From contig OY970192.1 of assembly GCA_963708135.1 (NCBI GenBank), positions 3,104,001-3,168,000 of the forward strand: DNA of 64,000 nucleotides, written 5' to 3'. Every line of letters starts with the position of its first letter. Within the stretch, counting starts at the first letter, position 1. This DNA comes from an uncultured Gemmatimonadales bacterium (GTDB lineage: Bacteria > Gemmatimonadota > Gemmatimonadetes > Longimicrobiales > RSA9). Shown one piece after another: positions 5,377-60,334 of the stretch. The notes beneath the pieces are model-generated. The model did not search any database. It was not told where the DNA came from and worked only from the letters and a program-made list of their open reading frames with translations. The translations under genes and the position numbers were made by a program.

Positions 5377-5413
5377 CCGCCGGGCGCGCGCAGGGGGACG
5401 GGCGCGCCGACGG

Positions 5414-5895
5414 GCCAGACCGTCGGACGTGGCCGGGAAGGTTCGGCGATCCTGTGCGCCCGGCGCACACAAGAGCCAAACCGTCGGACGTGGCCGGAAG
5501 CTTCGGCGATCCTGTGCGCCCGGCGCACACAAGAGCCAGACCGTCGGACCGGGACCGGAGCCCTCGGCGATTAGTTGCGCCGGGCGGACACAAGAGCCAG
5601 ACCGTCGGACCGGGACCGGAGCCCTCGGCGTTTGCGTGCGCCCGGCGCACACAAGAGCCAGACCGTCGGACGTGGCCGGGAAGGTCCGGCGATTATGTGC
5701 GCCTGGCTCACACAAGAGCCAGACCGGCGGACGTGGCCGGGACGATTCGGCGATCCTGTGCGCCCGGCGCACACAAGAGCCAGACCGTCGGACGTTGGCC
5801 GGGAAGATTCGGCGATCCTGTGCGCCCGGCGCACACAAGAGCCAAACCGTCGGACGTGGCCGGGAAGATTCGGCGATCCTGTGCGCCCCGGCTCA
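5414..5895. repeat. Tandem array of about 8 units of 60-62 bp with an internal palindrome
   Basis: Unit approximately GCCAGACCGTCGGACGTGGCCGGGAAGATTCGGCGATCCTGTGCGCCCGGCGCACACAAGA, with hairpin TGTGCGC-CCG-GCGCACA. It lies between convergent genes. Confidence 0.92.
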
Positions 5896-6257
5896 CTCGA
5901 GAGAGATCTCGAGCCCGTACAGGGGCAGCGGCGGGCGGGCCCGGGGCAGCGGCGGGCGGGACGCGGGGGCCACGTGCTGCGGCGGGAGCGGCCCGTCCGG
6001 GCGGGGCGGCCGCGGTTCGCGTCCGCGCCGCTCGGTGTGCGACCTGCGGGCGTCCGCCGCGGCCCGACGGCAAGACCGGAGTTCGTGCCGTTATTCGCCC
6101 TCCTGTCCGCTCCCGTTCCTCCGCGCGCCCCCTGCGAACGGCGTTGCAGGCCCTCAGCGCCCTCTACCGCCGGGGGCCCGCGGCCCGCAACGCTCGCGGA
6201 GCTCGGGGAGCTGGTGCTCGCCCTCACCCGGGCGCGCGCACGCCGCGCGGGCGAGAC

Positions 6258-24469: not shown

Positions 24470-26012
24470 GCCAGCGCCGCCGGGGGCGGCGCTGCGCCAG
24501 AGTGGGGGAGTGGGGGAGTGGGGGATGCGGCGGCCCTCGCCGCGTCCCTCACCTCGCGGCCAGCGCCGCCGGGGGCGGCGCTGCGCCAGAGTGGGAGAGT
24601 GGGAGAGTGGGGGATGCGGCGGGCCTCGCCGCGTCCCTCACGCTCCCGCCGCGGCGCCGAGCCCGGCACCCGCCGCGAACGGCGCGGCGCGTCTGCAACC
24701 GCGCCGCCCGGATCCCGCGCACGCGGCAAACGGCTCCCGGCCCCGCGCTCGAGGCGAGCCTCGCCGCCAGCCCGTCTCCCACTCTCCCACCTCGCGGCCA
24801 GCGCCGCCGGGGGCGGCGCTGCGCCAGAGTGGGAGAGTGGGGGAGTGGGGGATGCGGCGGGCCTCGCCGCGTCCCTCACGCTCCCGCCGCGGCGCCGAGC
24901 CCGGCACCCGCCGCGATCGGCGCGGCGCGTCTGCAACCGCGCCGCCCGGATCCCGCGCACGCGGCAAACGGCTCCCGGCCCGGCGCTCGAGGCGAGCCTC
25001 GCCGCCAGCCCGTCTCCCACTCTCCCACCTCGCGGCCAGCGCCGCCGGGGGCGGCGCTGCGCCAGAGTGGGGGAGTGGGGGAGTGGGGGATGCGGCGGGC
25101 CTCGCCGCGTCCCTCACGCTCCCGCCGCGGCGCCGAGCCCGGCACCCGCCGCGAACGGCGCGGCGCGTCTGCAACCGCGCCGCCCGGATCCCGCGCACGC
25201 GGCAAACGGCTCCCGGCCCCGCGCTCGAGGCGAGCCTCGCCGCCAGCCCGTCTCCCACTCTCCCACCTCGCGGCCAGCGCCGCCGGGGGCGGCGCTGCGC
25301 CAGAGTGGGGGAGTGGGGGATGCGGCGGGCCTCGCCGCGCCCCTCACGCTCCCGCCGCCGCGCCGAGCCCGGCACCCGCCGCGAACGGCGCGGCGCGTCT
25401 GCAACCGCGCCGCCCGGATCCCGCGCACGCGGCAAACGGCTCCCGGCCCCGCGCTCGAGGCGAGCCTCGCCGCCAGCCCGTCTCCCACTCTCCCACCTCG
25501 CGGCCAGCGCCGCCGGGGGCGGCGCTGCGCCAGAGTGGGAGAGTGGGGGAGTGGGGGATGCGGCGGGCCTCGCCGCGTCCCTCACGCTCCCGCCGCGGCG
25601 CCGAGCCCGGCACCCGCCGCGATCGGCGCGGCGCGTCTGCAACCGCGCCGCCCGGATCCCGCGCACGCGGCAAACGGCTCCCGGCCCCGCGCTCGAGGCG
25701 AGCCTCGCCGCCAGCCCGTCTCCCACTCTCCCACCTCGCGGCCAGCGCCGCCGGGGGCGGCGCTGCGCCAGAGTGGGAGAGTGGGGGAGTGGGGGATGCG
25801 GCGGGCCTCGCCGCGTCCCTCACGCTCCCGCCGCGGCGCCGAGCCCGGCACCCGCCGCGATCGGCGCGGCGCGTCTGCAACCGCGCCGCCCGGATCCCGC
25901 GCACGCGGCAAACGGCTCCCGGCCCCGCGCTCGAGGCGAGCCTCGCCGCCAGCCCGTCTCCCACTCTCCCACTCTCCCACTCTCCCACTCTCCCACTCTC
26001 CCACTCTCCCAC
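24470..26012. repeat. Tandem array of six ~238-bp structured units, plus a truncated first unit and a terminal (TCTCCCAC)7
   Basis: Unit starts at about 24559, 24797, 25035, 25273, 25503 and 25741. Each unit has the hairpin CAGCGCCGCC-GGG-GGCGGCGCTG, 2-3 GAGTGGG(G/A) octamers near the start and complementary TCTCCCAC octamers at the end. Confidence 0.95.
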
Positions 26013-26051
26013 TCTCTCCTTGCGTCGGCCAATCCCTGGCCCCATATTTCA

Positions 26052-27369: not shown

Positions 27370-27552
27370 GGGCGAGAACAATCGCGCAGTCGAGGCATCC
27401 CCATCCGGCCAAATCCCGATCTTTCCCGGATACCGAGCAAGATCGGGATCTCGCCGGGCCGCCGCCGCGGCCACTGCGCGATTCCTCTCGGATTCCGATC
27501 AAATTCGGGATGTCGATGCCGGCGACGATCTCCATTCCCCGATCTTGCTCGC
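27370..27552. repeat. Diverged copy of the repeat that flanks the DUF559 gene
   Basis: Nearly ungapped match to 58255-58440 and 59822-60007. Contains the perfect inverted repeat CGAGCAAGATCGGG ... CCCGATCTTGCTCG. Confidence 0.7.
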
Positions 27553-51170: not shown

Positions 51171-51443
51171 CCGCCGCCGCAGGCGCCGAACGCCGCCGAG
51201 CCCGTGGCCCGGCCCTCCGGCCGGAGACAACGGTCGGACGCCCCGGGGTTATCTCGGGCGGGCCGCAGCGCAATCGCAGGGATTCCCGCACCGAGCTACA
51301 CGTTTGCGCAGCCCGGACGAGGTCGCGCGATAGCTAGCCGGGCCGCGAGCGCTCCATGAATGTGTGCGGCGGCGGTCGTGAACTCCCCAGCCGTACCCCG
51401 GCGCAGAGGCGGTTCCCACGGGCCGGAACTCCATGGCAATGGT

Positions 51444-51513
51444 TGGGGACTTTGCCGCGCTATTCGCCGTCAAGTCCCCACGCGTTGATTTCACGGCCGA
51501 CGCGTGGGGACTT
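51444..51513. repeat. Cluster of three alternating TGGGGACTT/AAGTCCCCA motifs (REP-like)
   Basis: TGGGGACTT (51444), AAGTCCCCACGCGT (51472) and ACGCGTGGGGACTT (51500). The last two form a perfect 14-bp inverted repeat. Confidence 0.65.
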
Positions 51514-51580
51514 TCCTGCCCCGCGGACGGAGGCATGAAGGCGGCGCCGCAGGGCGCGGCGGCGCGAGTCGAGGGCACTT

Positions 51581-54762: not shown

Positions 54763-55053
54763 TCAGGCGCCGACCGTCGCCTCCTCGGCCGTCACCGGCT
54801 CGATCATGCGGTGCACGCGCGCGATCACGTCGGCGGGGAAGCCGCCCTCGCGGGCGTGCCTCAGCACCATCTCCTCGTCGGGCGCCACGTAGATGCAGTA
54901 GATCTTGTCGTCCGTGACGTAGCTGTGGACCCACTGGATCCTGGGACCGAGCTCGTTCAGCACGCCGCACGAGCGCTGCGAGATGGCCGCGAGCTGCTCC
55001 GCCGACAGCTGGCCGGCGCCCGGCAGGTCCCGCTCGATGATGTACTTGGGCAT
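54763..55053 (-). CDS. DUF4242 domain protein
   Basis: MPKYIIERDLPGAG...IQWVHSYVTDDKIYCIYVAPDEEMVLRHAREGGFPAD. Confidence 0.88.
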   Translation of the reverse strand: MPKYIIERDLPGAGQLSAEQLAAISQRSCGVLNELGPRIQWVHSYVTDDKIYCIYVAPDEEMVLRHAREGGFPADVIARVHRMIEPVTAEEATVGA

Positions 55054-55078
55054 GGTACTCTCCTGGTTCGGGTCGAGG

Positions 55079-55759
55079 TCACTGGGAGGCGCCGAGGTGC
55101 GTCACATCGCTGCCCGCATACTGGCAGGTCACGGTGGGATTCCAGTCGCTGAAGACGCCGCTCGGGTTCTCCTGCCACACCCACGCGTGCAGCCCCCAGA
55201 TGCCGAAGGCGTCGTTGTGGTGGAAGGGGACACCGCCGAACAGGGTAGGCGCCGGATCGGTGGCCGGCACGAGCGTGTAGGGGATGATGTACTCGACGCC
55301 CACCAGCTGCATGCGCCCGTTCTTCTGCGGCGCGTACATGAGCAGCTCGGGCTTGCGCGCGTCCGGCACGGGGTCGTTGACGTAGGTCGGGTTGCCGTAG
55401 TGGTAGCCCATGGTGCCGGCCGGCAGGTTGTCCATGCAGTTGGTGACCTCCACCGTCCAGCCCGCGTCCTGCGCCGCCTGGAAGTCGTGGAAGCGCGCCG
55501 TCACCTGCCGCAGCGCGGCCAGGTCGCGGTTGGCTGTGGCCGACCCGCCGCTGCTGCCCATGTCGAACGCCACCTGCCCGGCGGGGCCCCGCTGCGCCGC
55601 GGGCGCGTCGATCGGCTGGTCGCACGCGGCCGCCAGCAGGAGCGCCAGCGCGCCGGCCGCTCCGGCCCGCGCGATCCGCCCGGCCGCTGCGCCCGCCCGG
55701 CCGCTGCCCCCCGCGCGCCGCCCCGCGGCCGTCTCCCGATCCAGCATTCTCGATTCCAT
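55079..55759 (-). CDS. Hypothetical lipoprotein with conserved His motifs
   Basis: RBS GGGAGG, lipobox AAAC, MGYHY, PELLMY, LVGVEY and WGLHAWVWQENPSGVFSDWNPTVTC. Confidence 0.75.
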   Translation of the reverse strand: MESRMLDRETAAGRRAGGSGRAGAAAGRIARAGAAGALALLLAAACDQPIDAPAAQRGPAGQVAFDMGSSGGSATANRDLAALRQVTARFHDFQAAQDAGWTVEVTNCMDNLPAGTMGYHYGNPTYVNDPVPDARKPELLMYAPQKNGRMQLVGVEYIIPYTLVPATDPAPTLFGGVPFHHNDAFGIWGLHAWVWQENPSGVFSDWNPTVTCQYAGSDVTHLGASQ

Positions 55760-55885
55760 CACAAGACCTCCCCATGGTTGAAGGATGAGGGACCACTTGC
55801 CGTCCCTCTGCGTCGCGCTGCACATTGCAGCCGCGCCATCGCCCGGCTGTCGTCCCGTTCTCGCCACCCTCTCGCCCATGGCATC

Positions 55886-58132
55886 TTGTTTCGGCTCAAG
55901 CTCTTCGGCAGCGCCACCATCGAGGGCCCCGACGGCCCGCTGAGTGGCCGGCCCGTGCAGCGGCGGCGGCTCGCGCTGCTGGCGCTCCTCGGCCTGGCCC
56001 GCCAGCGCGGGCTCACGCGCGACAAGCTGATCGGCTATCTCTGGCCGGATGCCGACCCGGAGCGGGCTCGCCGTCTGCTCTCGGACTCGGTCTACCGGAT
56101 CAACCAGGCGGTGGGCGGCGAGGCCATCGTCGCCTTCGGGGACGACCTCCGGCTCGATCCCGAGCGGCTGCCCAGCGATGCATGGGAGTTCCTCGAGGCG
56201 CTCGAGCGAGGCGAGTGGCGGCGCGTCACCGAGGTCTACGTGGCGCCGTTCCTGGACGGCTTCTTCCTGACCGGCGCGGACGAGCTCGAGCGGTGGGTGG
56301 ACGCGCAGCGCGAGCGGCTGGCGCGCGAGCGCGGGCGCGCGCTCGAGGCGCTCGCGGAGGCGGCCGAGCGCGACCGCGACACTGGCGAGGCCGTCCGCTG
56401 GTGGCGCATGCTGGCGGCTCAGGATCCCTACAGCTCGCGGGTGGCGCTGCGACTGATGCGGGCGCTGGATGCGGACGGCGATGCGGCGGCGGCGCTCCGG
56501 CACGCGCGCGTGCATTCGCTCATGCTGAAGGAGGAGCTCGGCCTCGAGCCGGATGCCGAGCTGCTGGCTTTCGTCGAGGCGCTGCGGGCCGCGCCGCGGG
56601 CGGGCGTGCCGGCCGGCGACGAGGCCCGCGCCGCCCGCGCGGATGCCGCCGCACTCGCCGGGACGCCGCCGGTGCGGCCCGCCTCAGCCTCCGCCGCCGC
56701 GCCGATGGCCGTGCCCACCGGCGCAGATTCCCCCTCGCCCAGGCCACCGGCCGGCCCCGCCGGGCACACGGTTGCCGTGCTGCCGTTCGTGAACCTGAGC
56801 GCGGATCCGGAGAACGAGTACTTCGCCGACGGGATCACGGAAGATGTGATCGCCCACCTGTCGAGGATCGGCGCGCTGAGCGTGATCTCGCGCGCCTCGA
56901 GCATGCGCTTCAAGGACCGGGAGCAGAGCCCCCGCGAGATCGGGGCGGCGCTCGGGGCGGCCACCCTCCTGGCCGGGAGCGTGCGGCGCGCCGGGGACCG
57001 GGTGCGCATCGTCGCCCAGCTCGTGGATGCGGAGACCGGCCGCTGCCTCTGGGCGGAGACCTACGACCGGCGGCTCACCGATGTGTTCGCGATCCAGACG
57101 GACGTGGCGCTCCGGATCGCCGAGACCCTGCGCGCGCAGCTTTCGGCCGACGAGCGGGCGCGGATCCGGAAGGAGCCGACGCGCGACCTGCAGGCCTACC
57201 AGCTCTACCTCCAGGGCCGGATCTGCTTCGTCCACTTCACCGAAGAAGGACTGCGCGGGGGGATCGACTACTTCGAGCGGGCCATCGAGCGGGACCCGGG
57301 CTATGGCCCGGCCTACGTCGGGATTGCGATGGCGTACGCCGAGCTGGGGGAGACCGGGATGCTGGAGCCGGGCGAGGCATACCGGCGGGCCAGCGAGGCG
57401 GCCGCGAAGGGCCTCGCCCTCGACGATGGGCTGGCCGAGGCGCACTGCGTTCTCGGCCAGCTCAAGGTCGTGTCGGCCTTCGACTGGCCGGGCGCCGAGC
57501 GCGAGTTCCGGCGCGCCCTCGAGCTGAGCCCCAGCAGCGCCGATACGTGGGACCTCTACGGGCGTATGGCCTCATCCCTCGGCCGGCACGAGGAGGCCGT
57601 CGCGATGGAGAGTCGAGCGCAGGAGCTCGACCCGCTGGCGCACCGGGCGGACTTCGCCACCGCCCTGATCCGCGCCGGCCGCTACGAGGAAGCGCTCGAG
57701 GCGGCCCGGCGCACCATCGAGCTCGACCCCCGCTACGACCGGGGGCACGCCACCCTCGGCTGGGCCTACCTGAAGAACGGGCTGCCGGAAGAAGGCCTGG
57801 CGGAGCTGGAGAGGGCGGTCGCGCTGTCGCCGGAGAATGCCGCCTGGCTCGCGCAGCTCGGGCAGGCGTACGGCATGGTGGGGAGGACCGAGCAGGCGCG
57901 CGAGGCCCTCGGCCGGCTGGAGGCGATGGCCCGCGAGCGCTACGTCTCGCCGTACCACATGGCCTACATCTACACGGGCCTCGGCGAGGCGGATCGCGCC
58001 GTCGAAGCACTCGAGCGCGCCTACGAGGAGCGGGCCGGTGGGGTCTACGGCATCAAGGGCTCGTTCCTCTTCACGACCCTCCACTCCCACCCCGGCTTCC
58101 AGGCCCTGCTCCGGCGCATGAACCTGGCCTGA
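55886..58132 (+). CDS. SARP-type regulator: wHTH-BTAD plus TolB-like domain plus TPR repeats
   Basis: LFRLKLFG, TRDKLIGYLWP, PFLDGF, BTAD DPYS, VAVLPFVNLSADPENEYFADG and TPRs. The TTG start is inferred. Confidence 0.88.
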   Translation: MFRLKLFGSATIEGPDGPLSGRPVQRRRLALLALLGLARQRGLTRDKLIGYLWPDADPERARRLLSDSVYRINQAVGGEAIVAFGDDLRLDPERLPSDAWEFLEALERGEWRRVTEVYVAPFLDGFFLTGADELERWVDAQRERLARERGRALEALAEAAERDRDTGEAVRWWRMLAAQDPYSSRVALRLMRALDADGDAAAALRHARVHSLMLKEELGLEPDAELLAFVEALRAAPRAGVPAGDEARAARADAAALAGTPPVRPASASAAAPMAVPTGADSPSPRPPAGPAGHTVAVLPFVNLSADPENEYFADGITEDVIAHLSRIGALSVISRASSMRFKDREQSPREIGAALGAATLLAGSVRRAGDRVRIVAQLVDAETGRCLWAETYDRRLTDVFAIQTDVALRIAETLRAQLSADERARIRKEPTRDLQAYQLYLQGRICFVHFTEEGLRGGIDYFERAIERDPGYGPAYVGIAMAYAELGETGMLEPGEAYRRASEAAAKGLALDDGLAEAHCVLGQLKVVSAFDWPGAEREFRRALELSPSSADTWDLYGRMASSLGRHEEAVAMESRAQELDPLAHRADFATALIRAGRYEEALEAARRTIELDPRYDRGHATLGWAYLKNGLPEEGLAELERAVALSPENAAWLAQLGQAYGMVGRTEQAREALGRLEAMARERYVSPYHMAYIYTGLGEADRAVEALERAYEERAGGVYGIKGSFLFTTLHSHPGFQALLRRMNLA

Positions 58133-58147
58133 GGGCTGTCCGGCTGC

Positions 58148-58495
58148 CTCGCGGCGCGATAAGGATCGCGCAATGGGCGGGCGCCGAATCGCACCCACCC
58201 TCGCGGCGCGATAAAGATCGCGCAATGGGCGGGCGCCGAACCGCACGCACCCACGCGGCGCGATAAAGATCGCGCAATGGGCGGGCGCCACGCCGTCCAG
58301 ATCCGGAATCATCTCGGAAACCGGGCAAGATCGCGGGCGCGGCGTCGCCGAGAGGCGGCGGGTGCGCCTTTCTTCTCGAATCCCGATCAAGAAGGCGGTC
58401 GCGATCCTCGCGGCGAGGTCCGCTCGCCGATCCTGCTCGCCGCCCGCCGCGCGGATCGGCTGTCCGTCGCGCCCGCGCGGGCGAACCCGCGACGG
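58148..58495. repeat. Left direct repeat: 3 x 52-bp palindromic units plus a ~200-bp tail
   Basis: Units at 58148, 58200 and 58252 with palindrome GCGCGAT-AAGG/AAAG-ATCGCGC. The tail TCCAGATCC...AACCCGCGACGG is nearly identical to 59863-60059. Confidence 0.92.
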
Positions 58496-58549
58496 CGGCC
58501 CGATCGGAGGTTCATCCCGCGGTGCCGGCGGCCGGGCCTGACGGGCGGC

Positions 58550-59494
58550 CTATGCCCGATGTGCGCGGTGCCGGGGGGCGGCTGCCTTGCGCGCCCCCGC
58601 CAGGGCGAGAATCTGGCCGATCTCGACGGCCACGGCGGTGGGCTCTCGCGTGAGCCGTCGCCAGCTCACGCGGATGACCTCGATGCCGCGGGCGCGCAGC
58701 CACGCGTCCTTGCGGCGGTCGCCCTCGAACCGGGCCCGGGACGAATGGTGCTGCCAGCCGTCGATCTCGATAGCGACCCCCTCCCGGGGCCATAGGCCGT
58801 CCACCTCGTAGGGCCCGATCGCCACGTTGAGGTGCGGGCGCGCCAGGTGGCCGACGCGCACGAGGTCCTGGAGACGCTCCTCGGCTCCGGAGCGCGTGAA
58901 CGCCGGGCCGTCCAGATCACCGAGAACGTCCCGGAGCGCCGCCATGCCCGGGCGCCCCCGGTATCGCGCCGGCAGGCGGGCGAGCTCGTCGCTCGTGATC
59001 AGTTTCTGCCGCTCCGCGACGGCCACGCTCTGCTCGATCTCGCGTCGCCCGAGGAGAGCCGCGATGTCCACCAGCGTGCGGCCGGGGGACGTGACCGGAA
59101 TGCCTTCGGCGACGGCGCGCTCGTCCTCCGCCAGCGCCTTCACGTGGTGCAGCCGGATCCCGGCGCGGCCCGCGTGCGCGCTTCGGAAGACGCTGACATC
59201 GAGGGGCCCCGGGCGTTCGGGGCGCGGTCGCACGCCCAGCAACACCGCGCCGGAGAGGTGGCTGAGCAGCGCCCCCGTGCCGCCCGCCAGGACGGCCGCC
59301 ATCTCGGCCGCATGAGGCGCCTCGAACGGTCCAATGAGGTAGACCCCGCTGTGAAGCGGCCGGAATCGGCGGGACTGCATCCGACGACCGATCGCCGCGG
59401 AGGAGAGGCCTGCCCGGAGGAGCTGCGCCCGGCTCACCACGCCGTGCTGCGAGGCGGCCAGCGCCATGACGCGCTCTTCGGTCTCGATATCCAT
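58550..59494 (-). CDS. AbiEi antitoxin-like N-terminal domain plus DUF559 (Vsr-like) endonuclease protein
   Basis: LAASQHGVVSRAQL...LHSGVY (AbiEi-type wHTH), GIPVTSPGRTLVDIA, and YEVDGLW...AIEIDGWQHH...DRRKDAWL...GIEVIRV (DUF559). Confidence 0.88.
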   Translation of the reverse strand: MDIETEERVMALAASQHGVVSRAQLLRAGLSSAAIGRRMQSRRFRPLHSGVYLIGPFEAPHAAEMAAVLAGGTGALLSHLSGAVLLGVRPRPERPGPLDVSVFRSAHAGRAGIRLHHVKALAEDERAVAEGIPVTSPGRTLVDIAALLGRREIEQSVAVAERQKLITSDELARLPARYRGRPGMAALRDVLGDLDGPAFTRSGAEERLQDLVRVGHLARPHLNVAIGPYEVDGLWPREGVAIEIDGWQHHSSRARFEGDRRKDAWLRARGIEVIRVSWRRLTREPTAVAVEIGQILALAGARKAAAPRHRAHRA

Positions 59495-59656
59495 GGCTCA
59501 CACCCGCAGGGTTGCCCGGTGGCTCGGACCGCCCGCACCAGCCCGGCGCGATGTGCGACTGGGTCCGGTGCGGCCGGTGGGGCCCATGATCGCCCGGAAC
59601 GCGGGGCAACCCCATGGCAGGATGCGCCGCGGACCCGCCGGCCGGCCACGAAGCCA

Positions 59657-60059
59657 CTCGCGGCGCGATAAGGATCGCGCAACGGACGGGCGCCACGCCG
59701 CAGGCACCCACTCGCGGCCCGATAGGGATCGCGCAACGGACGGGCGCCACGCCGCAGGCACCCACTCGCGGCCCGATAAGGATCGCGCAACGGACGGGCG
59801 CCACGCCGCAGGCACCCACTCGCGGCCCGATAAGGATCGCGCAACGGACGGGCGCCACGCCGTCCAGATCCCGGATCATCTCGGAAACCGGGCAAGATCG
59901 CGGGCGCGGCGTCGCCGAGAGGCGGCGGATGCGCCTTTCTTCTCGAATCCCGATCAAGAAGGCGGTTGCGATCCTCGCGGCGAGGTCCGCTCGCCGATCC
60001 TGCTCGCCCGCCGCGCGGATCGGCCGTCCCTCGCGCCGCCGCGGGCGAACCCGCGACGG
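59657..60059. repeat. Right direct repeat: 4 x 54-bp palindromic units plus a ~200-bp tail
   Basis: Units at 59657, 59711, 59765 and 59819 (CTCGCGGC(G/C)CGATAAGGATCGCGCAACGGACGGGCGCCACGCCGCAGGCACCCA), followed by a tail matching 58296-58495. Confidence 0.92.
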
Positions 60060-60334
60060 GGCAGCGGTCCGGAGCCAGGCGCCAGGTCCTTCCGGCGGCG
60101 AAGGCGCTCCGGCCTGTAGGTCGCCCCCCCGGGCTGGCGGCGCGGGCCGGCCGACCGTAGAACTCCTGCGGAAGCCACCGCGCCGATCCGGTCCGCACCC
60201 CCTCCGAACAGGAGACCGGCATGCTCGTGAGGCACGGGGCGTGGTGGGGCTCGGTTGGGGGGGCGCGCCCGCGCGGCCTGGCGGCGAACGGCGGACGAGC
60301 GCACGACACCTGCGACCCCGGAGAGGAGACCGGC

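Follow-up and report, generated by a model that had tools for sequence, protein, structure and literature searches.

Closest Described Systems

For many dispersed repeats of bacteria, the enzyme that mobilises them is not known. MITEs are non-autonomous IS derivatives that are short, gene-less and sharply bounded, with inverted ends. For CGTC repeats, no mobilising enzyme is known according to the available part of one source (PMC3733652). In REPIN-RAYT systems, or REPtrons, the gene of one enzyme has beside it a member of the repeat population that belongs to it, a genome can contain several such pairs, gene-less copies occupy extragenic space, and populations decay when the gene is lost, as far as the available portions of the descriptions go (10.1101/2021.07.10.451892; PMC3733652). 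The AbiE antitoxins are also relevant. AbiEi monomers bind pairs of 23-bp inverted repeats, and the operator of Rv2827c consists of 23+13+23+4 bp per repeat pair, with two pairs and a 63-bp period (PMC7319586). Of its gaps, 13 bp lie inside a pair and 4 bp between pairs, and the wider gap was suggested to house the C-terminal domains (PMC7319586). The homing endonuclease I-Bth0305I forms a dimer with a protected footprint of 60 bp, and its cut falls at the centre of a pseudo-palindrome (PMC3239194).

No paper on AbiEi-DUF559 genes with cognate repeats was found in a search of the open-access literature. In the available part of one source, MTES_1575 is treated only as a domain of giant defence proteins (PMC3710099). 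The accessible part of a preprint on AbiEii phosphorylation contains nothing on nuclease fusions.

The locus described here lies in a 64,000-nt window (the whole stretch of DNA that was analysed) of the genome of an uncultured Gemmatimonadales bacterium (G000), which is a single contig of 5.45 Mb with a G+C content of 72%. It contains an AbiEi-DUF559 gene between two copies of a 179-bp element that belongs to a dispersed family. The partnership of this nuclease family with private dispersed elements is real and is undescribed in the open-access literature. The locus adds six orthogonal gene-element pairs that share a genome and a common 61-62-61 grammar, together with a match to the operator geometry of AbiEi.

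By membership, the partnership falls outside REPIN-RAYT, AbiE systems, EDxHD homing endonucleases and MITEs. As described for REPIN-RAYT, each enzyme gene adjoins a repeat from its own population (6 of 6 intact paralogs), several such pairs share one genome, gene-less copies are extragenic and populations decay on gene loss. The enzyme differs. No HUH/Y1 transposase domain was found; Pfam assigns AbiEi_4 and DUF559, the parts of the model match other folds, and the protein combines an AbiEi fold with a Vsr-type nuclease rather than being an HUH tyrosine transposase. The element carries six half-sites in three units at 61-62-61 and shows little hairpin covariation, unlike the hairpin doublet of two REPs, and its neighbours are rarely common to different genera. 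With the AbiE antitoxins AbiEi (6y8q) and Rv2827c (1zel) the protein shares the two-domain fold (residues 4-195), and the 63-bp operator period is near 61-62 bp. Unlike them, it has a nuclease domain fused C-terminally, it has no bicistronic nucleotidyltransferase toxin beside it, the AbiEii toxin family (PF08843) was not found in the source genome, and its repeat array occurs at dispersed sites and, at the gene, often on the downstream side. I-Bth0305I (3r3p) has a Vsr-like catalytic domain with matching D, H and D, an N-terminal DNA-binding part, and a footprint, as given in the available part of its description, of about 60 bp that matches one element unit. Here, the gene is not located in an intron or intein, the DNA-binding domain is different, and the apparent target is a dispersed element adjoining the gene and not an insertion-free allele. 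MITEs resemble the elements in their short, gene-less, sharply bounded copies with inverted ends, which here are inverted half-sites. Unlike MITEs, the elements have no detected target-site duplication, have ragged shared flanks and an internal triplication, and no DDE transposase was seen beside any copy when the neighbour proteins were clustered.

The Gene and Its Product

The gene (58550-59494, minus strand) encodes a protein of 314 aa to which Pfam assigns AbiEi_4 and DUF559. The preliminary description placed it as a lone gene between two same-orientation repeats, and this was borne out, as the flanks align over 352 columns (89.5%). The gene is free-standing between two whole genes, encoding a BTAD-TPR protein and a GH3 glucosidase, so there is no intron or intein host, and no recombinase adjoins it. 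No sigma-70-like promoter and no terminator match were found at the locus. The named near homologs of the gene are from Gemmatimonadota.

The protein was modelled with a pLDDT of 92. It is divided into a winged helix (residues 4-55), an AbiEi C-terminal domain (58-194) and a Vsr/EDxHD nuclease domain (197-304). In the model, residues 4-195 match AbiEi (6y8q) with a Z of 11.7 over 184 residues and Rv2827c (1zel) with a Z of 8.8, and the protein matches the PADLOC AbiEi model with an E of 1.9e-26. Residues 200-301 match I-Bth0305I (3r3p; Z 13.3), NGO0050 (Z 13.1) and Vsr (Z 11.1), and the match to the catalytic domain of I-Bth0305I has an rmsd of 2.5 A over 96 residues. Six catalytic positions (E205, D232, E243, D245, H250 and D259) show no variation among 118 homologs, and the same holds for 87 of 87 locus proteins. 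In the alignment with I-Bth0305I, its catalytic residues H213 and D222 fall at H250 and D259, and D232 corresponds by position to D196. The protein is thus predicted to be an AbiEi antitoxin fold fused to a Vsr/EDxHD nuclease with intact catalytic residues.

The Repeats at the Locus

Two tandem arrays were found, as had been described. The left array (58147-58289, plus strand) has a period of 52 bp, 2.8 copies and 95% matches, and the right array (59654-59862, plus strand) has a period of 54 bp, 3.9 copies and 98% matches. Units are more alike within arrays than between them, which was also part of the preliminary description: adjacent full units are 94-95% alike, and likeness to the left reference unit is 75-83% for those on the right. 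The two flanks share a 194-nt stretch at 95% identity.

The division of each flank into an array and a separate tail was incorrect. The last array unit and the tail together form one 179-bp element, which is composed of units of 56, 57 and 56 bp and two 5-bp linkers and has a spacing of 61-62-61. Within each unit, one half-site of about 17-20 bp is read forward and the other in reverse, giving six alternating half-sites per element, and the linkers between units are CG-N5-CG junctions. The copy downstream of the gene, placed as a family copy and by its register, is at 58261-58439 (plus strand). Its first unit runs from 58261 to 58316, followed by linker 1 (58317-58321), unit 2 (58322-58378), linker 2 (58379-58383) and unit 3 (58384-58439), all on the plus strand. 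The copy upstream of the gene is in the same orientation at 59828-60006 (plus strand), with linkers at 59884-59888 and 59946-59950. The two cores match at 172 of 179 positions and differ at 7. Beyond them lie outer extensions on the plus strand. The one at 58440-58495 has a ragged end and is common to the other copy and partly to close dispersed copies; its counterpart, a shared flank, is at 60007-60059.

In both arrays, it is the first half-site of the element, with some outer flank, that has been amplified locally. The amplified stretch ends 29 bp into the element in the left array and 35 bp in the right array. The palindrome GCGCGAT-N4-ATCGCGC was described in the units of both arrays, with one mismatch in three right-hand units. 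The mismatches were confirmed. The palindrome is not what is conserved, since there are five exact occurrences in 5.45 Mb and four of these are at this locus; the family consensus at the site of this 18-bp palindrome is non-palindromic.

A structured RNA was considered and rejected, as there is no Rfam match within 58000-60300. A CRISPR-like array was rejected as well, since the units repeat whole and unique spacers are absent.

Dispersed Families in the Source Genome

BLAST of the flanks against the source genome, a check proposed in the preliminary description, is how the element was recognised. Family 1 has 23 full copies (at least 100 bits), of which two are at the gene and 21 are elsewhere, and its conservation begins and ends sharply at the edges. 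One gene-less copy lies in the same window at 27371-27552 (plus strand; 159 bits), in a convergent intergenic gap.

The genome contains seven AbiEi-DUF559 paralogs, each single-copy, and identity of the other six with the focal protein is 42-60%. An internal stop breaks paralog 7; paralogs 1-6 are intact. Family models were seeded from one flank of each paralog and iterated over the genome, and families 1-6 have 23, 5, 5, 4, 26 and 17 sites, respectively, gene-side sites included. Each model matches the flanks of its own paralog only, and all off-diagonal cells of the matrix are empty. A more sensitive run gave weak cross-matches (15 and 20 bits) between paralogs 1 and 2, which are the closest pair. 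Since the seeds were cut from the paralogs' own flanks, the diagonal is filled by construction, and the informative parts are the dispersal and the empty off-diagonal cells. The broken paralog 7 has a degenerate element downstream and no distant match on either flank. Two further families are represented in the window. A family-4 array (61 bp x 8; no strand assigned) is at 5410-5903, and an internally deleted family-5 copy is at 51373-51520 (minus strand). Their paralogs are outside the window, paralog 4, which family 4 flanks, at 3,189,628-3,190,545 and paralog 5, which lies beside a family-5 copy, at 3,378,136-3,379,017 of G000.

By the gene calls made for this analysis, 79 of 80 sites are intergenic. 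All six intact paralogs border a gap that contains an element, compared with 152 of 4437 predicted genes (3.4%), and clustering of 152 neighbour proteins found the AbiEi-DUF559 family to be the only one regularly adjacent to elements. A family-blind pattern of six half-sites gave 35 matches in the source genome and none in a reversed control. Orphan copies, family-4-like and two-unit family-3-like, are present among the de novo repeats listed.

Tandem repeats occur in 23 of 79 element gaps and in 57 of 765 other gaps. Copies are 66-92% identical to their nearest dispersed copy; they are therefore old, and no recent burst is seen. Sister copies have 10-60 bp of flank in common beyond the core. 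These ragged flanks are shared with the nearest copy on the left and right in 9 and 9 of 22, 11 and 3 of 25, and 7 and 9 of 18 copies, counts that take in reciprocal and tandem pairs. A target-site duplication was not detected: the longest word shared by a copy's own flanks averages 4.3, 4.1 and 4.7, against 4.4, 4.3 and 4.7 for mismatched flanks, a comparison in which duplications of 2-3 bp could be missed. In families 1, 5 and 6, unit-hairpin and end-to-end pairs show no excess of identity or covariation. Of 45 tests, three gave a slight covariation excess: two dyads at junctions, with p 0.011 and 0.046, and a non-adjacent pair, with p 0.001. One more was borderline. The single strand of the element folds well (z -2.9). 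Four Ku genes are present in the genome.

Homologs and Elements in Other Genomes

Of 60 relatives, 27 contain AbiEi-DUF559 matches; in three of these, which are order-level relatives, the match is partial. The number of matches per genome ranges from 0 to 8. The pooled set holds 150 de-duplicated loci. In 158 Gemmatimonadota flanks, 6-mers recur at lags of 61 and 62 in 16% and 20%. Recurrence is 1-2% in 600 windows drawn at random from the source genome and in 130 distal flanks, and 92 actinobacterial flanks gave 1-3%. Beside Thermoleophilia homologs, the 61-bp geometry is weak or absent.

A sequence-blind detector of five dyads about 30.5 bp apart, which overlooks many known copies, was compared with 633 control gaps. 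Their 99th percentile was exceeded by 33 of 74 loci, a set that takes in one unclassified record, and by 5 of 44 actinobacterial loci. The best junction dyads are odd-centred in 65 of 76 cases (38 elements). CG-N5-CG is present at 34 of these 65 junctions, compared with 59 of 816 in control gaps and 20 of 222 in score-matched ones. Exact 61-62-61 spacing was found in 15 of 40 registered elements, with 64 triples allowed. In the focal clade of 14 proteins, 10 of 10 registered elements start with CGRG[A/C], and outside it 1 of 32 does.

The expectation that the flanking repeats would co-vary with the protein phylogeny held for the half-site sequences, whose distances correlate with protein distance (Mantel r 0.41, p 0.002, which is the floor for 500 permutations; kin are not independent). 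The geometry itself is common to the families. The tree was made with FastTree, 11 partial-match loci were left out, and the paralog-6 row is about one base off register. Plain physical linkage would also explain this co-variation. At the level of domains, uncorrected partial correlations of at most 0.17 link the inner half-site to residues 28-47 and the outer half-site to residues 188-207 and 228-247. These give a hint of co-variation between half-sites and particular residue stretches.

In G032, the genome of the closest homolog, the element of that homolog is present in 12 copies, and 11 of these are away from the gene. None of eight dispersed copies that were fetched has a homolog within 1.5 kb, and no full copy of the element was found in four other genomes. 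Three other genes have 2, 0 and 2 dispersed copies, the zero being that of G027. Of 24 relatives that have a fusion-type homolog, 8 gave element-like matches to the family-blind pattern; of 36 that lack one, none did. Within the family, the counts are 8 of 23 and 0 of 13. These calls were made by agreement in unconstrained columns, by eye for two places in G032, and one place in G012 is unscored. Five diverged copies of the family-1/2 type are present in G035 and one in G030, and no focal-clade gene was found in either genome.

BLAST of the focal element over the 60 relatives, a search of the kind proposed in the preliminary description, gave matches of 23-60 bp only. At the sensitivity used, the focal family appears to be lineage-specific. 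Four GH3 orthologs from other genera have no BTAD gene, AbiEi-DUF559 gene or family match in about 0.7-1.3 kb upstream, sites that are too distant, and stretches too short, to count as empty alleles. Among 169 flanks, 16 pairs share neighbour genes, a count made without a synteny control, and the focal gene is in none of them. Such sharing is confined to a small number of closely related pairs.

A Gene-Element Partnership and Its Alternatives

As an association, the partnership between gene and family is well supported. The preliminary description proposed a RAYT/REP-like system. That comparison has strong genomic support in the private dispersed family of each intact paralog, the geometry beside homologs in other genomes, the co-variation, the invariant residues and the failure to find a RAYT in the genome; the 18-bp palindrome as its target does not stand, and the predicted target is likely the six half-sites of the 179-bp element. 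Occurrence of the repeat genome-wide, away from the gene, had been named as speaking against a link, and literally this is what is found for 21 of 23 copies. Given the one-to-one pairing of gene and family, the gene-less copies look like non-autonomous spread rather than independence.

The best reading of the sequences is a RAYT/REPIN-like partnership that would have descended from an antitoxin and its operator. It is probably a two-part system like REPIN-RAYT, made of unrelated parts. By analogy with AbiE, the AbiEi part very probably binds the half-sites of its own family as double-stranded DNA. One monomer would sit on each half-site, so that the element would in effect be a tripled operator, with three operator pairs in tandem, and each unit would serve one nuclease dimer. 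Paired monomers would unite two nuclease domains, which would nick or cut the element. The cut would be a little more likely at the unit centre than at the CG-N5-CG linker, given the operator analogy and the fact that both arrays end near +28. The copies show no excess of unit-hairpin or end-to-end identity, which favours recognition of the element as double-stranded DNA. The substrate may alternatively be a structured single strand, in view of the slight covariation at three pairs and the well-folding single strand.

Host repair, by end joining or recombination, would turn breaks into local tandem amplifications and rarely would seed distant copies, which would have ragged ends and no target-site duplication. 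The gene would move rarely, carried with one element. The tandem repeats, the lack of a detected target-site duplication, the ragged flanks and the Ku genes are indirect signs of breakage and repair. That cuts by the nuclease seed new element copies in this way is favoured on balance. The step from a hydrolytic cut to a new copy is the weak step of the mechanism, since a hydrolytic nuclease has no joining chemistry and cutting one's own sites favours their loss, which counts against spreading. A strict link between gene and element is also weakened by the orphan families in G035, G030 and the source genome, and by genes with no dispersed copies, as in G027. A broader proposal is tentative and is given somewhat less than an even chance. 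An antitoxin and its operator would have become a selfish replicator of a new kind, in which an AbiEi-Vsr fusion spreads tripled-operator elements by cutting hydrolytically and relying on host repair, and transposase chemistry plays no part. Each paralog would read its own half-site of about 17 bp in a fixed 61-62-61 scaffold, making a large natural set of orthogonal protein-DNA pairs. If the nuclease does spread the elements, RAYT-like repeat populations would have arisen independently a second time, and the operator of a toxin-antitoxin system would have given rise to a mobile element. The pairs would also amount to a natural collection of compact nucleases, each with a long recognition site of its own. 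The six orthogonal pairs in one genome make the link directly testable.

The first alternative is that the proteins only bind. They would be domesticated DNA-organising or regulatory factors, or autorepressors, the elements would be spread by host recombination or another enzyme, and the nuclease would have a different role. This is unlikely, although AbiEi-type proteins are operator-binding repressors, orphan families exist, one focal copy is about 330 bp upstream of the start codon, and outside the focal clade 22 of 31 registered elements are upstream. For the focal clade, all 9 of the automatically registered cases have their best element downstream, a position that does not suit an operator, and the upstream copy at the focal locus is most likely secondary. 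In addition, 29 of 79 copies are in convergent gaps, compared with 13-14% of all gaps, and six independent families at unrelated genes fit no regulon. As for another enzyme, no Y1 transposase (PF01797, RAYT) was found in the source genome, which is 97.65% complete, and no other family is regularly adjacent. The gene number of 0-8 matches per genome also argues against binding alone.

A rather improbable alternative is a defence or addiction module with a DNA antidote, in which free nuclease is toxic, the elements keep it inactive, and loss or degradation of the sites, for example upon phage infection, releases it. The N-terminal part does match the PADLOC AbiEi models and derives from an abortive-infection lineage, the active site is invariant, and six sites per element with up to 26 elements would provide a high capacity. 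Such a module gives no account of the private families, the fixed spacing or the genes with one or no dispersed copy, and the gene is solitary, with a regulator on one side and a glucosidase on the other.

It was also suggested that the unit may excise through its direct repeats, and a cassette that excises and integrates by recombination between the two long repeats would have this layout. No pair in family 1 is closer than the two cores, which are 96% identical, and a circle of gene and element integrating into a resident element would yield the arrangement seen. In the source genome, four of seven paralogs have a repeat shared by both flanks, in three of them as direct repeats. Two-sided enclosure is exceptional elsewhere, which leaves excision unsupported: it was found in 5 of 66 other Gemmatimonadota loci (3 direct, 2 inverted) and 2 of 43 actinobacterial loci, compared with 9 of 300 random source-genome genes, so direct repeats on both sides are not the rule. 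There is no adjoining recombinase, and the paralogs, each in a single copy, are only 42-60% identical to the focal protein. A listing of sequencing runs gave one DNA source of the sequence, possibly the source sample, and no RNA source. Contigs of three sequencing runs, which do not span the locus, contain no match to an excision joint between the two copies, a result that carries no weight either way. The cassette is decidedly improbable, and the best explanation of the direct-repeat layout is a second, recent duplication of the element and its arrays, with the layout itself incidental.

That gene and elements came together by chance in neutral gaps rich in repeats, or through an assembly artefact, is extremely unlikely: the source genome does have many other intergenic repeat families among the de novo repeats listed, and different families do cluster in some gaps, but the off-diagonal matrix is empty, 6 of 6 intact paralogs border elements against 3.4% of genes, the pattern recurs in other genomes, and the two copies differ at 7 positions and in their arrays.

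Distribution of the Protein Family

A metagenome scan with the focal protein gave one weak locus. Rv3517, Rv1482c, Rv3555c and Rv3714c of M. tuberculosis are candidate members of the family; the literature gave one unrelated match for them. The AbiEi-DUF559 proteins form a large family, and they are annotated as orphan antitoxins or as Vsr endonucleases.

Focal protein and related loci

The focal protein, the 314-aa AbiEi-DUF559 protein encoded at window 58550-59494 on the minus strand, possesses a middle domain (residues 58-194) with a nucleotidyltransferase-like fold, as identified by structure comparison of its predicted model. Within this domain, T135, R139, D143, and E154 are nearly invariant, even though the search for a toxin partner found none.

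The seventh paralog in the genome (4895626-4896504), which contains an internal stop, forms a tight clade with five homolog loci from other genomes, L073, L063, L082, L023, and L061. Identity within this clade is 67-80% across genera, and no neighbor genes common to its members were found. The clade may have spread by horizontal transfer.

The neighboring BTAD-TPR gene had been read as a 1049-aa open reading frame, window 54983-58132, that is over-extended. The gene caller places its start at window 55886 and identifies two minus-strand genes, at window 54763-55053 and 55079-55747.

Element copies in the genome

The gap at 5092458-5093154 holds three families: a family-6 element, a family-5 array of about six 62-bp units, and the right part of a family-1 element, which abuts the family-5 array directly. 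Family-4-like elements with no adjoining gene are present at 213943-214168, 216801-217020, and 473982-474126. About nine family-3-like two-unit copies (~115 bp) were observed elsewhere in the genome, and four of these stand in tandem at 229843-230785.

Element copies are sparse between 1.0 and 2.5 Mb, where only 5 of the 88 are located. The cumulative GC-skew of the contig has its maximum at 1.11 Mb and its minimum at 4.01 Mb. Six of the 43 members of a large family, tentatively guessed from sequence to be permease-like, adjoin an element (for example, the gene at 2765890-2768616), about four times the genome rate. At 5278191-5279242, a family-5 element was also seen immediately upstream of one of the four Ku genes.

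Other repeat families are represented in this genome. At window 24470-26016, a 238-bp unit with GAGTGGGR octamers at its ends occurs in six tandem copies. The unit is part of an intergenic family of its own, with about 98 sites in the genome according to the de novo repeat scan, and lies outside the six-half-site families. Among the matches listed from that scan are also a decamer-built family (~23 sites), a hexamer-built family (~22 sites), and, at 3067973-3087512 and 5132878-5140406, a cassette array resembling an integron together with CRISPR-like arrays.
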